Source: Planctomycetota bacterium
GTDB lineage: Bacteria; Planctomycetota; UBA1135; UBA2386
Direction of reading: 5' to 3'
Assembly: GCA_965228735.1 (NCBI GenBank)
Contig: OZ245838.1
Location: forward strand, 4,352,001-4,416,000
DNA: 64,000 nt
In this document: positions 21,131 through 27,810 of the stretch, piece after piece
Position numbering within the stretch: the first letter of the stretch is position 1
Layout of the letters: the number at the start of each line of letters is the position of its first letter
The notes under the pieces: model-generated
Seen by the model: only the letters and a program-made list of their open reading frames with translations
Told to the model about the DNA's origin: nothing
The model's database searches: none
Position numbers and translations under genes: made by a program

Positions 21131-21721
21131 TCAGAGCAGGAAGTCGTAGACGAGCCAGACCGCCGCGCCGGCGATCGCCCAGCCGACGAGCGCCAGCACG
21201 CCGTCGTACGCCATCACCGCGAGGCCCAGCAGCATCGCGCTCGCCGCCGGCACCGCAGCACCGAACGGCACGATCTCGAGCGGTGGCATCAGGCAGCCCA
21301 TGACGACGACCGCGAGCGCGTTGATCGGCTGGGCCACGCTCTTCGTGAGGAACGTCAGGCGCGGGTGCACCCAGCGATCGATGCGTTTCGCCCACGGCCG
21401 CACCTTCTCGAACCCGCTCTCGAGCTTCTGCCGGTCGATGCTGCGCTCGCGGATCCGGCGCGGCAGCCACGGGTTCTTCAGGCCGACCGCGCGCTGACCG
21501 GCGATCAGGACGAGCAGGATGCCGACGATCGTCGGCAGTAGCGGAATCGCGCCGAGTGGGCTCACGATGATGAACCCGAGCAGCGCGATCGCGGGGCCGA
21601 GCAGGCGGTGCGAGAACGTGTCGAGCACGTCCTGGACCTCGACCTCGTCCTCGCCTTCGGTCCCTTCGAGCAGGGCATCGATCGCCTCCTCGATCGACCG
21701 CACGTCGCCGTTGCCGCTCAT
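21131..21721 (-). CDS. exoD: ExoD-family exopolysaccharide biosynthesis membrane protein
   Basis: 'SPLGAIP', 'PWLPRRI', 'PPLEIVPFGAAVPA', 'DGVL' motifs and TM helices. Confidence 0.85.
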   Translation of the reverse strand: MSGNGDVRSIEEAIDALLEGTEGEDEVEVQDVLDTFSHRLLGPAIALLGFIIVSPLGAIPLLPTIVGILLVLIAGQRAVGLKNPWLPRRIRERSIDRQKLESGFEKVRPWAKRIDRWVHPRLTFLTKSVAQPINALAVVVMGCLMPPLEIVPFGAAVPAASAMLLGLAVMAYDGVLALVGWAIAGAAVWLVYDFLL

Positions 21722-22944
21722 GGCCGCCGCAACAGCACGATGCGGTTGGTGTTGGTGCCGCGACGGTTGTTGTCGACGCCCCAGCAGTTGGCGGTCTTGG
21801 TGAACTCCTGCGCATTGACCATCACGAGCTCGGGCTCGAGACCGGCGCTCACGGCGGCCGGCACGACGGCCTCCTCGAGTCGCACCTTGCCGCCGCGCAC
21901 CTCTCCGACCTCGAACGCGATGTGCCCACCGGGGCGCACGACGCGGTGCAGCTCGACGAACACCTCGGTCATCGCGGCCTGCCAGGCATCGACCGTGCGC
22001 GCCATCGTGATCGGCACGGTCGCCGCATCGATCCCGGCGAACCAGCAGCGCAGCCAGTTGTCATTCGCGTACTGCACGACGTCGAGGAACGGCGGCGACG
22101 TGACGACGAGCTGCACGCTCGCGTCGAGAACCCCGGCAAGCTCGGCCGCCGCGCCGGTCGTGAGCACGGCCCGTTGCGCGAGCGCGCTGCTCGCGGCGCG
22201 CCAGAGCGGGTCGACGTTCTTGAACAGTGCCGCCGACTTCTTGCGCAGGATCGCCTTGACGTCGCGGACGGGCGGCTCTTGCGCGCGCTTCTCGTTGATC
22301 TTGCGCTGGGCCGCGACGGTGACCGCCTGGTTGGGCGGCATTGTGTAGACCGAGAAGAACCCGGCCGAGTGTCCCGTGAGCCGGTTGATCGCGACCATGC
22401 GCAGCCAGTCGTCGACCGCGTCGAGCTCACCCGCCGCGTCGCGCTGCAGCAGGTACTCGCGCAGGGCCCGGATCGCGCCCAGCGTCTCGGGATGGAAGAA
22501 CACGAGCAGGTCGTCGTCCGCTTCGTCCGCCACGCCCGCCGCGGACTCGGCGAGATCCAACGCGTCGATCCGTTCGAGCACCCGCGAGAGCGGCGGCGGG
22601 TCGAGCCGCGGCCGCACGAGCATCGTCGACAGCGGGTTGACGTCGTTGCCGCCCGGCACGCGTTCGCGCAGCACGGCTTCGAGCGGGGTCGTGCCGCGCC
22701 CCATGAACGGATCGAAGACGAGATCGCCGGGCTTCGACAGCCGTTCGATGAAGAAGGCGGGCAGCGACGGCTTGAAGCACGCCCGGTAGCTGACCTCGTG
22801 CAGGCTGTGCCCTTCGCGTTGCGCCGACGTCCAGAACTCGTTGGTCAGCATCGGCACGCGCCGGCCGTCGACCGCGAGCGCGTCACGGTGCGTCGCCGCG
22901 CCGAACTCGGCGAAGTCCTCGAGCTCTCGTAGCAACGACGTCAC
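21718..22944 (-). CDS. Orphan N4/N6 DNA methyltransferase
   Basis: SAM-binding motif I 'FDPFMGRGTT' and catalytic motif IV 'VTSPPF'. No restriction endonuclease is adjacent. Confidence 0.85.
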   Translation of the reverse strand: MTSLLRELEDFAEFGAATHRDALAVDGRRVPMLTNEFWTSAQREGHSLHEVSYRACFKPSLPAFFIERLSKPGDLVFDPFMGRGTTPLEAVLRERVPGGNDVNPLSTMLVRPRLDPPPLSRVLERIDALDLAESAAGVADEADDDLLVFFHPETLGAIRALREYLLQRDAAGELDAVDDWLRMVAINRLTGHSAGFFSVYTMPPNQAVTVAAQRKINEKRAQEPPVRDVKAILRKKSAALFKNVDPLWRAASSALAQRAVLTTGAAAELAGVLDASVQLVVTSPPFLDVVQYANDNWLRCWFAGIDAATVPITMARTVDAWQAAMTEVFVELHRVVRPGGHIAFEVGEVRGGKVRLEEAVVPAAVSAGLEPELVMVNAQEFTKTANCWGVDNNRRGTNTNRIVLLRRP

Positions 22945-23004
22945 GGCGGGATGCGAACCCTTCGGCGGCCGCGCCGCAAGCTACGATCCGGGTTCGTGGA
23001 GACC

Positions 23005-24423
23005 ATGATGTTGACGACCCTCGTTCTCTCGATCGCCGGCGCCGTTTCCGGGCTCGACGCGGAGCCAGCTACCACAACGATGACCGCTCCCGCCGCTGCC
23101 GCGGCCGCGGCGACGATGCCGCGCGGCGAGACCCCGCCGCCCGGCCCACCGTGGCTCCTGACCTACCGCGAAGCGCGCCGCGACGCGCTGCTGCGCGGTC
23201 GGCCGGTCATGGTCTACTTCACCAAGACCTATTGACCGCACTGCCTCCCCCTGGAGCAGCAGGTGCTGTCCAACGAGAAACTCGCCGCGCACTACGACAA
23301 GGTCACGTGGCTGTTCGTCACGCGCAACTTCAAGAACGACGCGAAGGACCGCGAGGCGGCGCGGACGCACGATCGCTTCGGCATCACGTCGTGGCCGCAC
23401 TGCGAGCTGTTCGATCCGCGCGACGATCGCGTGCTCGCGGACCTGCCGCGCGATCTCGCGGGCTTCGTCGCGGACATCGACCGGCACGCTGGCGCGGTGA
23501 AGAAGGCCGGCCGCCGGAGCGAACGAGCCGCGGCGACGGTCGCGCGGGCCACCGCGTTGTTCGAAGCCGGCAAGACGAAGGCCGCGCTGACGAGCATCGC
23601 GCCGGTCGCCAACGGGAAGGACGATGCGTTCGTCCATCTGTGGGCGCGCGAGCTCGAACGTGAGTGGCGCGGCAAACCCGTCCCGATCGCCGACCGGCTC
23701 GCCGACCCGGACGTGCGCGAGCGCGCGATCGGGCTCGAGGAGGCCTTCGAACGCGAGGCTCGCAAACTGCGCCCCCTGCAGGAACGCATCCGCGAGCTGC
23801 TGCTCGATACCGACGAACACCTCGTCGTTCGCCTGCGCGCGCTCGCGATCGTCGCGCGCGACGAACCCGAGCTCGTGCGCGATCACGCCGCGGATCTGCT
23901 CGCGATCGAGAACGACAACTTCCGCTTCCAGGTGCTGCAGACGCTCAGCAAGCACGCGGATCCCGAACTCGTTCCATTGCTCGTGATGATGTTCGAGGGT
24001 GCCGGGACGAAGGTCAGGAGCGGCAACCCCAACGTGCTCCGCATCCACATCGCGCGCTGCCTCGGCGCCGCCGGCGATCCGCGCGGCCTGCCGCCGCTGC
24101 AGTCGATCGCCGAGGCCGCGGACCCGCGCAACGGCCTCACCCACGTCGGCCTGAAGGCCCTCGGCACGCTCGGCCGCGACGGCGACCGCAAGCTGCGCGC
24201 GCAGGTCGTCGACATCCTGCGCGGGGCGTTGCCGCCGGCGATCGCGGACGCGGATCCGAGCCTCGGCGAACATGCCGAGCGCCGCTTGTTGGGCGTCGTG
24301 CGCAGCCTGCGCGAAGCGCTCGATGGCAACGTGACCGCGGTGCCACCGCTGCCTTCGGGCTGGACGAAACGCGACCGCACGGCGTTCGCCAAGGCACTCG
24401 AGCGAGCGCGCCCGCGCCGCTGA
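23005..24423 (+). CDS. Putative selenoprotein: thioredoxin-like domain (UxxC) fused to HEAT-like repeats, about 472 aa, Sec at about residue 77
   Basis: ORF-track fragments 22951-23235 and 23263-24423 share a frame. Reading through TGA 23233-23235 gives PVMVYFTKTY-U-PHC-LPLEQQVLSNEKL, a thioredoxin active-site context. Confidence 0.85.
23252..23272 (+). promoter_or_regulatory. Putative bacterial SECIS element
   Basis: UGGA-(G bulge)-CAGC-[AGGU loop]-GCUG-UCCA, with the loop starting 25 nt after the UGA. Confidence 0.7.
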
Positions 24424-24517: not shown

Positions 24518-26806
24518 ATGTCGATTCGCCGCGAAGGACCCGTTGCCGAGCGTCTGCTCGAGCTGTTGCAGAACCATCCGGGGGCGGATCGGGCGCGCGC
24601 CGGGGCGCTCGACGGGCCGATCGCGCCGCACGCGTCGATGACGCGACGGCAGGCCGTCGCGATCTTCGAGTCGGCGATCCAGTCGCGCCTGCAGGACCTG
24701 CTGTCGCGCGAGCTCAAGGACCGGGGCCTGAGCTACTACACGATCGGCAGCAGCGGGCACGAGGCGAACGCGATCTTCGGCGCGCTGCTGCGGCCCACGG
24801 ACACCGCGTTCTTGCACTACCGCAGCGGCGCGTTCATGGCGGCGCGACTGCGGCAGGGGCGCGGCGAGACGCCGTTCTTCGACGCGATGCTGTCGTTCTG
24901 CGCGTCGGCCGAGGATCCGATCAGCGGCGGGCGACACAAGGTGCTCGGCTCGCCGACGATGCACGTGCCGCCGCAGACGAGCACGATCGCGAGCCACCTG
25001 CCGAAGGCGCTCGGCTTCGCGATGGCGATGTCACGACTGCGGCGCCAGGGCATCGAGCCGGGCTCGGGCGTGCCGCTCGACAGCATCGTCTACTGCAGCT
25101 TCGGCGACGCGTCGCTCAACCATGCGACGGCGCAGGCCGGCCTGCACAGCGCGGGTGCTGCGGTGCTGCACGCGCAACCGTGCCCGGTGCTGTTCGTCTG
25201 CGAGGACAACGGCATCGGCATTTCGGTCAAGACGCCGGCGGACTACGTCGAGCGCATGATGCGGCACCGGCCGGGGATCAAGTACTTCGCGTGCGACAGC
25301 CAAGACTTCCCCGGCGTCTGGTCGACCGCGCAGCGCGCGATCGAGTTCGTGCGACAGCAGCGCCGACCGGCGTTCCTGCACGTGCGGACCGTTCGCCTCA
25401 TGGGGCACGCGGGCTCGGACGTCGAGGCCAACCACATGCCGCTCGAGCAGATCGAGGAGAACGAACGACGCGACCCGTTGCTCGCGTTCACCGATCTGCT
25501 GCTGACGACGGGTGCGATCAGCAAGGACGGCATCCTCGCGCTCTATCGCGATACCGACGCTCGCCTGCGCCGCGCCGCCGACGAGGCGGCGACGCGCAAG
25601 AAGCTCACGACCGTCGCGCAGATCACCGCGCCGCTGATCCGGCCGACCGCCGGTCAGTGCGAGGTGCAGGTCGCCAGCAACGAACGGCGGCTCGAGGTCT
25701 TCGGCGGCAAGCTGCCCGAGGACGACAAGCGCAAGCGCCACCTCGCCTACCGCATCCCGCAGGCGCTGACCGACATCCTCGCGGCCTACCCCGAGGCGTT
25801 CGTCTTCGGCGAGGACGTCGCGAAGAAGGGCGGCGTCTACAACGCGACCAAGGGCCTGCACGAGCGCTTCCGCGGCGGACGCGTGTTCAACACGATCCTC
25901 GACGAGACGACGATCCTCGGCCTCGCGCAGGGCATGGCGCAGGCCGGGTGCCTGCCGATCCCTGAGATCCAGTATCTCGCCTACCTACACAACGCGATCG
26001 ACCAGATCCGCGGCGAGGCCGCGTCGCTGCAGTTCTTCAGCACGGGCGCGTCGCATCGGGACATCAAGGACGCGCAGTTTCCGAGCTACGCCAACCCGAT
26101 GGTCGTGCGCATCGCCGGGCTCGCCTACCAGAAGGGCTTCGGCGGCCATTTCCACAACGACAACTCGGTCGGCGCGCTGCTCGAGATCCCCGGCATCATC
26201 CTCGGTGTGCCGGCGCGCGCCGACGACGCGGTGCTGATGCTGCGCGCGATGACGGCGGCGGCGCACGAGCACGGCATGGTCAACGTCTGCCTCGAACCGA
26301 TCGCGCTCTACATGCAGAAGGACCTGCACGAGCCGGGCGACGGGGAGTGGCAGTTCGACTACCCGGCACCCCACGAGGTCATGGACGTCGGCGAAGGTCG
26401 CGTCTACGACGAGGGCGACGACGACGCGCTGACGATCGTGACCTACGGCAACGGTCTGTGGATGAGCCTGCGCGTGCAGCGGCGACTGCGGCAGGAGGGC
26501 ATCAAGGCGCGCGTGTTCGATCTGCGCTGGCTGCTGCCGCTGCCGATCGAGCAGATCAAGGAGCACGTGCGTGCGACGAAGCGGTGCCTCGTCGTCGACG
26601 AGTGCCGCAGCACGCACGCCGGCCCGAGCCCGATGATCCTCACCGAGCTCTGCCAGGATCCCGAGCTGCGCGGCGCTGTCCTGCGCCGAGTCGCCGCGGC
26701 GGACAGCTACGTGCCGCTCGCCGCGGCCGCCAATCTCGTGCTCGTGCAAGAACCCGACATCGAGCGCGCCGCGCGCGAGATCGTCGAAGTGGAGGTCGGT
26801 CGATGA
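24518..26806 (+). CDS. Fused E1 alpha/beta TPP-dependent 2-oxoacid dehydrogenase (branched-chain-like)
   Basis: TPP motif 'FGDAS...EDNGIGIS', 'RLMGHAGSD', and beta-half motifs 'FGEDV..KGGV', 'EIQY', 'FGGHFH'. Confidence 0.9.
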   Translation: MSIRREGPVAERLLELLQNHPGADRARAGALDGPIAPHASMTRRQAVAIFESAIQSRLQDLLSRELKDRGLSYYTIGSSGHEANAIFGALLRPTDTAFLHYRSGAFMAARLRQGRGETPFFDAMLSFCASAEDPISGGRHKVLGSPTMHVPPQTSTIASHLPKALGFAMAMSRLRRQGIEPGSGVPLDSIVYCSFGDASLNHATAQAGLHSAGAAVLHAQPCPVLFVCEDNGIGISVKTPADYVERMMRHRPGIKYFACDSQDFPGVWSTAQRAIEFVRQQRRPAFLHVRTVRLMGHAGSDVEANHMPLEQIEENERRDPLLAFTDLLLTTGAISKDGILALYRDTDARLRRAADEAATRKKLTTVAQITAPLIRPTAGQCEVQVASNERRLEVFGGKLPEDDKRKRHLAYRIPQALTDILAAYPEAFVFGEDVAKKGGVYNATKGLHERFRGGRVFNTILDETTILGLAQGMAQAGCLPIPEIQYLAYLHNAIDQIRGEAASLQFFSTGASHRDIKDAQFPSYANPMVVRIAGLAYQKGFGGHFHNDNSVGALLEIPGIILGVPARADDAVLMLRAMTAAAHEHGMVNVCLEPIALYMQKDLHEPGDGEWQFDYPAPHEVMDVGEGRVYDEGDDDALTIVTYGNGLWMSLRVQRRLRQEGIKARVFDLRWLLPLPIEQIKEHVRATKRCLVVDECRSTHAGPSPMILTELCQDPELRGAVLRRVAAADSYVPLAAAANLVLVQEPDIERAAREIVEVEVGR

Positions 26807-27810
26807 GCCGCCCCACCGCCGTTCTGTTGTGCCCCGGTCGCGGGGCCTACACGCGCGAAGAGCTCGGCTTCCTCGGTCGCACCGTTGCACCCGGTCCGGT
26901 GCAGGACGCGCTGACCGCGAGCGACGAAGCGCGACGCGCAACGGGCCGACCACCGCTGAGCGAGATCGACGCAGCCGAGAAGTTCCGCCCCGGCCTGCAC
27001 CTCGACGGCGAGAACGCGGCCGAGCTCATCTACTTCTCGACGATGGCGCACGTCGAGCAGCTGCGCGAGCGCTACGACATCCTGGCGGTCTCCGGCAACT
27101 CGCTCGGCTGGTACACCGCGCTGCCGGCGAGCGGCGCGCTCGACCCGACCGCGGGCTGGCGACTCGTGAGCACGATGGCCGCGCTGCAGAAGGAGGTCGC
27201 GGGCGGGCAGCTGCTGACGACGGCCGTCGACGAGCAGTGGCGTCCCGACCTGAAGGCGCGTTCCACGATCCGCGAACTGCTCGTCGAACTCGACGACCGG
27301 GGACCGGAATGGGCCTGCGACTACAGCATCCACCTCGGCGGTCACATCGTGCTCGCGGGCACGGACCGCGCGATCACGGAGTTGCTCGACCGTCTGCCGA
27401 AGCACAAGGTCGGCGCGCGCGAGTTCCCGTTCCGCCTCGCGGGTCACGGCCCGTTCCATACGCAGCTCTGTCAGCCGACATCGGACGCCGCGGCCGAGCG
27501 CCTCGCGGACCTGCCGATCCAGCAGCCGCGCTGTCACCTCATCGACGGCTTCGGCAACGTGCACTCGCCGTGGTCGGCCGACCCGCGCGAGCTGCTCTAC
27601 TACACGACGCACGAGCAGGTCGTCGACACGTTCGACTTCACCGCGTGCGTGCGGACCGCGATGCGCGAGTTCCAGCCCGACGTGCTCCTGTGCGCGGGTC
27701 CGGGATCGTCACTGCGCGCGCCCGTCGGCCACTGCGTCGTCGCGGAAGGCTGGCGCGGCGTGAACGACAAGGACGCGCTCTTCGCGAGCAACCTCGTCGC
27801 CATCGACTGA
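26803..27810 (+). CDS. FabD-like (ACP S-malonyltransferase-like) acyltransferase
   Basis: 'CPGRG', nucleophile motif 'GNSLGWY', 'GPFHT', 'GPG'. ATGA overlap with the E1 gene. Confidence 0.8.
   Translation: MSRPTAVLLCPGRGAYTREELGFLGRTVAPGPVQDALTASDEARRATGRPPLSEIDAAEKFRPGLHLDGENAAELIYFSTMAHVEQLRERYDILAVSGNSLGWYTALPASGALDPTAGWRLVSTMAALQKEVAGGQLLTTAVDEQWRPDLKARSTIRELLVELDDRGPEWACDYSIHLGGHIVLAGTDRAITELLDRLPKHKVGAREFPFRLAGHGPFHTQLCQPTSDAAAERLADLPIQQPRCHLIDGFGNVHSPWSADPRELLYYTTHEQVVDTFDFTACVRTAMREFQPDVLLCAGPGSSLRAPVGHCVVAEGWRGVNDKDALFASNLVAID

Follow-up and report, generated by a model that had tools for sequence, protein, structure and literature searches.

Selenoproteins with a thioredoxin (Trx) fold and a UxxC motif are the commonest kind in bacteria, and selenocysteine (Sec, U) in a thioredoxin UxxC is chemically ordinary. 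We analyzed a 64,000-nucleotide (nt) stretch of a Planctomycetota bacterium (assembly GCA_965228735.1, contig OZ245838.1, positions 4,352,001 to 4,416,000), here called the window, which at 23005-24423 (+) holds a gene for a protein of this kind. Like the described bacterial UxxC proteins, it has a thioredoxin fold, Sec predicted at the first CxxC position and an in-frame Sec insertion sequence (SECIS); its C-terminal part is a HEAT-like helical solenoid, and we refer to the protein as Trx-HEAT. The gene is a real selenoprotein gene that has been mis-annotated. The family is apparently uncatalogued, working like other UxxC thioredoxin-fold selenoproteins while standing outside every named family tested.

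No NCBIfam family reaches its cut-off on the protein. The best match is the Trx7/PDZ (seleno)protein family NF041199, which also joins a Thioredoxin_7-type domain to a fused partner but scores 15.8 bits against a cut-off of 300, with CxxU in place of UxxC and PDZ in place of HEAT; Pfam matches no PDZ domain here. Chlamydia DsbH (PDB 2ju5; NF043050) shares 16% identity (16.5 bits, cut-off 190), and neither it nor the DsbD gamma domain has Sec or a helical solenoid, unlike this protein. The UxxC thiol:disulfide interchange family PF13098 can be set beside it by description only, with 24.7 bits against a cut-off of 27, though the homologue P0057 reaches 30.7. One clear repeat matches the HEAT_2 or PBS-lyase type found in alphaRep scaffolds and deoxyhypusine hydroxylase, whereas the repeats here are degenerate, with an N-P-N-V-L-R motif peculiar to the family, and the His-Glu iron ligands of the hydroxylase are not among the conserved columns. 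A search of the published literature found no listing of a Trx-HEAT selenoprotein family. No HEAT fusion is named among the 119 families in Table 1 of a 2026 review (PMC13188914), and neither "HEAT" nor "Planctomyc" occurs in its accessible text or in the accessible main texts of BSepDB, deep-Sep and SelCysML. The accessible part of the BSepDB supplement includes Planctomycetota genomes and no HEAT entry among those listed, although members may carry a generic thioredoxin label in the BSepDB web data. An earlier note, made from the DNA letters, had failed to recognize the architecture among described selenoproteins. The gene and its parts are listed below.

23005..24423 (+): whole Trx-HEAT gene, 472 amino acids with U77; the start may be 23008
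22998..23001 (+): Shine-Dalgarno-like GGAG, seen in the sequence, with a putative function
23005..23064 (+): predicted signal peptide, followed by an Ala/Thr-rich linker; hydrophobic core with a Kyte-Doolittle mean of ~2.2 over 10 amino acids
23134..23502 (+): thioredoxin-fold domain, residues 44-166, Thioredoxin_7 / DsbH / DsbD-gamma-like
23233..23235 (+): in-frame TGA, predicted Sec77, first position of U-P-H-C at a helix start
23242..23244 (+): Cys80, predicted resolving cysteine, invariant in 28/28 full-length rows
23252..23272 (+): predicted bacterial SECIS, UGGA-G-CAGC-[AGGU]-GCUG-UCCA, loop at 23261-23264, 25 nt after the UGA
23395..23397 (+): Pro131 of S-W-P, probably in place of the thioredoxin cis-Pro, 62/62 rows
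23512..24402 (+): all-helical HEAT/armadillo-like solenoid, residues ~170-466; PF13646 at 29.5 bits (cut-off 27.7) and AlphaFold
24019..24042 (+): conserved S-x-N-P-N-V-L-R motif of the solenoid, a candidate site for binding or for docking of the domains

With TGA read as U, the sole internal stop of the 472-residue frame is TGA 23233-23235. The letters at 23221-23244 are acc aag acc tat TGA ccg cac tgc, within the peptide context Y-F-T-K-T-Y-U-P-H-C. A mechanical open reading frame (ORF) caller breaks the gene into 22951-23235 (94 amino acids) and 23263-24423 (386 amino acids); these are the two fragments in one frame, parted only by the TGA, that the earlier note had described, and all the motifs it quoted around the codon are in the sequence. 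Codon usage is gene-like both 5' and 3' of the TGA, and the flanking coding scores of 0.41 and 0.43 rank with the highest for the 96,763 TGAs scored genome-wide. Chance alone does not account for the in-frame TGA, since both sides score as coding and 41 of 44 orthologous loci retain it. Nor is it an assembly error, with TGC or TGT as the true codon. A contig from run X10 has 0 differing letters over 23136-23688, TGA included, and a contig of a diverged strain, X13, has none at 23233-23235 among the 40 of its 45 differences listed. X10 and X13 are labelled coral or macroalgae metagenomes; the identical contigs X1 and X2, from which this DNA may itself derive, were left out as evidence.

The alternative of a true stop, with either two small genes or a pseudogene, or of an error in the assembly, is effectively refuted. 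A GTG at 23263 could begin the 386-amino-acid ORF, and databases annotate products of this type that way. However, full-length Cys homologues exist, the TGA is kept across many families of the phylum, a hairpin accompanies TGA and never TGC, the cut would fall within the thioredoxin fold, and the independent runs show TGA.

The database search returned 43 homologues, of which 41 start just after the TGA site and two span it with Cys, so annotation does split the gene as had been proposed. A wider library search gave 147 matches at E <= 0.001, among them four N-terminal fragments (P0150, P0155, P0159, P0179) that stop exactly at K-T-Y. Searching with an alignment detected the family in 28 of the 251 genomes available for the order and in 31 of the 401 for the phylum, the source genome being counted in both. 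Among 38 named loci, the titles of 34 are of Planctomycetota type, two are Gemmatimonadota and two plain "bacterium". The site codon is TGA in 41 and TGC in three of 44 distinct orthologous loci, one contig fragment without the site having been left out. The phylum search added 24 loci of other genomes, 23 with TGA and one with Ser and no CxxC (L196); several of these repeat loci of the 44, and related loci are not independent. The expectation of Cys or Sec at this site held: homologues that span it mostly have Cys, the exceptions being a few forms without any of the CxxC. None of the three refuting conditions named in the earlier note applies. The P-H dipeptide of UPHC is kept in most loci, with P-A-C and P-S-C variants. 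All three Cys genomes retain parts of the Sec machinery (selA in G021 and G034, tRNA-Sec in G021 and G148). On a quick tree of 38 rows, the starred branches require at least three switches between Sec and Cys, and grouping all Cys rows in one clade is rejected (p-AU 6e-7). The nesting of Cys rows among Sec rows suggests Sec-to-Cys reversions, the unrooted tree being open to either direction. The two loci titled Gemmatimonadota (L094, L097) have the Sec form with another hairpin loop, GGGAC, possibly by transfer or as a binning effect.

The source genome (G000; 7.19 Mb, one contig, 69% GC, rated 93% complete) encodes selA, selB and selD, each scoring above its cut-off, as well as a tRNA-Sec (selC) with anticodon TCA, so that all four genes the earlier note had asked after are present. 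Its selD itself holds an in-frame TGA, in G-S-G-U-A-A-K. Downstream of the Trx-HEAT TGA, the window hairpin (loop AGGU, -10.2 kcal/mol) satisfies the published bacterial SECIS model as set out in the accessible text of PMC13188914. The generic hairpin rule is unspecific in this genome, being satisfied by 219 of 499 candidates. In the family, the hairpin has a loop of 4-5 nt with G at loop position 2 and begins 22-25 nt downstream of the UGA. Such a hairpin is present after 40 of 41 TGA codons, against 5.7 expected from random synonymous recoding of the same peptides, and after none of the three TGC codons. In 23 of the 25 loci that make up the largest group, base 1 of codon +8 is paired with base 3 of Leu codon +11 (CAG/CTG in 11, GAG/CTC in 8, GAG/CTT in 2, AAG/CTT in 2). 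Leu codons at the loop position are TTG in 20 of 20 cases, though TTG makes up 5% of Leu codons in the source genome. Across 11 sequences, 87.5% of stem cells are paired with eight two-sided changes, a value as high being reached in 0 of 500 shuffles, a control that ignores relatedness among the 11.

One point tells against Sec decoding. The window hairpin alone is not unusually stable (z -0.3 to -2.2), so its support comes from being conserved and not from its own stability. Given the machinery, the alignment to Cys and the hairpin together, TGA 23233-23235 is nevertheless almost certainly decoded as Sec. The selenoprotein reading of the earlier note is thus borne out by complete machinery, the prevalence of TGA among orthologous loci and a SECIS-type hairpin that goes with it.

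By Pfam curated cut-offs (27 for PF13899 and PF13098, 27.7 for PF13646), the thioredoxin fold is matched by PF13899 at 34.2 bits. The AlphaFold model (pLDDT 96.5) combines a thioredoxin domain like those of DsbH and DsbD-gamma with a HEAT/armadillo-like solenoid, so both the continuous fold cut by the TGA and the HEAT-like helical C-terminus proposed earlier agree with profile and model. A strand at model residues 25-31 precedes Sec at residue 34 and a helix at 35-45; the CxxC site would thus lie at a helix start after a strand, as expected of a thioredoxin fold. A hydrophobic N-terminal stretch, read in the earlier note as a hint of export, stands behind the start codon in 44 of 44 orthologous loci, and we predict that the protein is very probably exported. 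Solenoid residues ~170 to 230 are absent from short forms of the family. The most conserved part of the solenoid includes S339, N341, N343, R346, D304, R307 and N376, each invariant in 62 of 62 rows. These residues, together with a weak Pfam match to SCO1/SenC (E 0.009), could speak for the same selenoprotein handling a metal or small molecule, for example by keeping a metal- or heme-binding apo-protein reduced or by sensing an oxidant, with one dedicated partner on the solenoid motif. We regard this as very unlikely, as the gene has no conserved neighbors and no conserved His/Cys ligand set outside UxxC is found among the aligned conserved columns.

At the 5' end, the GGAG at 22998-23001 lies 3 nt from ATG 23005 and 6 nt from ATG 23008; with this spacing the true start may therefore be the second ATG. 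A divergent DNA-methylase-like gene (PF01555; window 21718-22944, -) lies only 60 nt from the start of the Trx-HEAT gene, and window 24521-27810 (+) holds a 2-oxoacid dehydrogenase with fused E1 alpha/beta and, after it, an acyltransferase-like gene.

An exported UxxC thioredoxin domain requires a redox partner. The source genome has one DsbD-type membrane domain, in a gene with two DsbD_N domains, and no match to DsbB or VKOR, which favors a reductase fed by DsbD. The DsbD gene also has an in-frame TGA, at genome position 4263499 (-) (L119, L138), where the C-terminal thioredoxin (gamma) domain reads F-N-U-G-S-C, with the TGA at the first CxxC position; the hairpin rule used here finds no SECIS at this TGA. 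The C-terminal part of DsbD has matches in 57 of 61 family genomes, and in 45 of the 57 a TGA lies inside the match, counted wherever in the match it falls. According to the accessible part of PMC3322552, DsbD and ScsB are known to feed exported thioredoxin-like proteins, peroxiredoxins and Msr.

We consider it probable that Trx-HEAT is a periplasmic dithiol/disulfide reductase fed by DsbD, with the solenoid selecting clients. SelB, together with tRNA-Sec, would bind to the hairpin that lies 25 nt downstream, so that Sec77 is inserted, and the signal peptide, predicted from its hydrophobicity, would export the protein. Attack and resolution by a CxxC pair is established chemistry; here, the Sec77 selenolate would attack a client disulfide or oxidized cysteine, and the resulting mixed bond would be resolved by Cys80. 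Re-reduction of the Se-S bond may then come from the DsbD encoded in the genome, through its alpha domain. The solenoid, with its invariant Asn, Asp and Arg residues, likely selects or holds the client, the weakest step of the scheme.

The same selenoprotein could instead act as a DsbA-like oxidase or isomerase, making or shuffling disulfides in exported proteins. C-P-H-C is the DsbA-type dipeptide and usually goes with oxidases, and its retention in most loci, together with the hydrophobic N-terminus, fits this role. However, P-A-C and P-S-C variants exist, an Se-S bond is usually more reducing than S-S, and neither DsbB nor VKOR has a match in the genome. By fold, the protein matches DsbH, DsbD-gamma and thioredoxins, with no DsbA among the best 50 matches listed. 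We judge an oxidase or isomerase quite unlikely.

Several other observations weigh against a DsbD-fed reductase. The genome being only 93% complete, the absence of DsbB and VKOR is not proven. No gene neighborhood is conserved across 28 loci, so genome context ties the gene neither to DsbD nor to a client. Three homologues (P0069, P0075, P0076) have an extra N-terminal C-x4-C domain that is weakly like DsbD-alpha, which favors a link to DsbD; the resemblance is below the Pfam cut-off in two of the three (E 0.0028 and 0.07), with a pairwise E of 0.018, and a PDB profile search with this domain found no DsbD chain. Four homologues (P0072, P0074, P0104, L196) keep the Trx-HEAT build without a CxxC and are possible pseudo-enzymes. 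The scaffold can therefore persist without redox chemistry, which leaves a chaperone or binding role open.

Such a role would make Trx-HEAT mainly an exported chaperedoxin, its solenoid holding unfolding envelope proteins and its Sec forming protective mixed bonds with the cysteines of these proteins. The closest parallel is CnoX/YbbN, likewise a thioredoxin domain fused to helical repeats, which by the accessible text of PMC8129009 unites holdase and redox protection, has TPR repeats and works with cytoplasmic GroEL. Here a predicted signal peptide and Sec are present, and the repeats match HEAT with no Pfam match to TPR. CxxC-less homologues that retain both domains fit a chaperedoxin, as do weak Foldseek matches to YbbN/CnoX (3qdn, E 0.0027; 3qou, E 0.0052), but these have an rmsd of ~25 and a TM of ~0.2. 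The invariant Cys80 fits catalytic turnover, and the tightly invariant polar motif suggests a specific ligand and not a general holdase. A chaperedoxin is thus unlikely, and a DsbD-fed reductase remains the reading we prefer.

To place the gene in its selenoproteome, we combined a whole-genome TGA scan with family scans of 52 hand-picked sites, a hand-curated estimate. At 26 of the 52 sites (24 genes), the TGA takes the place of a Cys within or next to a Pfam domain of redox or metal-binding type; counting selD and Trx-HEAT, 26 genes are firm. For a further 15 sites (14 genes), the support is limited to paralogues, hairpin and coding score. The other picked sites were dismissed, six as gene junctions and five as unsupported. 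The genome thus holds about 40 predicted selenoprotein genes, 26 of them firm, many with hydrophobic N-termini (judged by eye, uncounted). In the accessible BSepDB data, the top ten organisms have 46-63 selenoproteins each and include no Planctomycetota. No formate dehydrogenase turned up among the Sec candidates, though no search was aimed at it. Two full-length COX1 matches and a weaker third suggest that the organism respires oxygen; aerobes rarely retain selenoproteins, according to the accessible text of the 2026 review (PMC13188914).

Other candidates stand beside Trx-HEAT in this genome. A second exported-looking Trx7 family (4984718-4985722, -; L123, L034-L050) has Y-F-T-R-x-Y-x-P-U-x-x-C and a helical C-terminus. 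It occurs widely in relatives, in most cases with TGA and hairpin, and reaches no NCBIfam cut-off. FG-GAP-repeat proteins with an in-frame TGA next to Cys and a hairpin lie at 3065085 (+), 5872224 (-), 406817 (-) and 5458926 (+) (L121, L125, L127, L162); they are candidate new selenoprotein families, none being in Table 1 of PMC13188914 as accessible. Four paralogues with G-H-P-L-G-x-T-U, at 4855623 (-), 3484699 (+), 7087946 (-) and 6929513 (+) (L132, L136, L137, L146), are weakly Trx7-like with no NCBIfam match. Seven more TGA read-through candidates with hairpins, at 5497385 (+), 2546238 (+), 3235945 (+), 7165651 (-), 5150736 (+), 3763190 (-) and 3485980 (-), have no family over cut-off. Three genes have two predicted Sec each, at 583337/583577 (+), 2372/2123 (-) and 6694255/6693895 (-); one encodes a double HMA and one a double HMA-like protein, while the product of the other is a thioredoxin with VPGUxxT that carries a fused MsrA-like domain.

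These results add a selenoprotein family spread over many Planctomycetota families and correct an annotation under which databases hold it almost only in truncated form. They also provide a natural series of Sec and Cys forms, a clean test set for SECIS evolution: the Cys forms all lack the hairpin, even where Sec genes persist. They point to an envelope redox system rich in selenium, including a Sec-DsbD, in a genome that also encodes terminal oxidases, in contrast to the picture of aerobes in the accessible text of the 2026 review (PMC13188914). Tentatively, Trx-HEAT may be one terminal of a selenium-wired envelope redox network in oxygen-respiring Planctomycetota, in which a Sec-DsbD hub would feed dozens of exported selenoproteins, several of them uncatalogued (Trx-HEAT, Trx-helical, FG-GAP propellers). 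If so, the selenoproteomes of these bacteria would be among the largest known, at odds with the notion that bacteria rich in selenoproteins live anaerobically.
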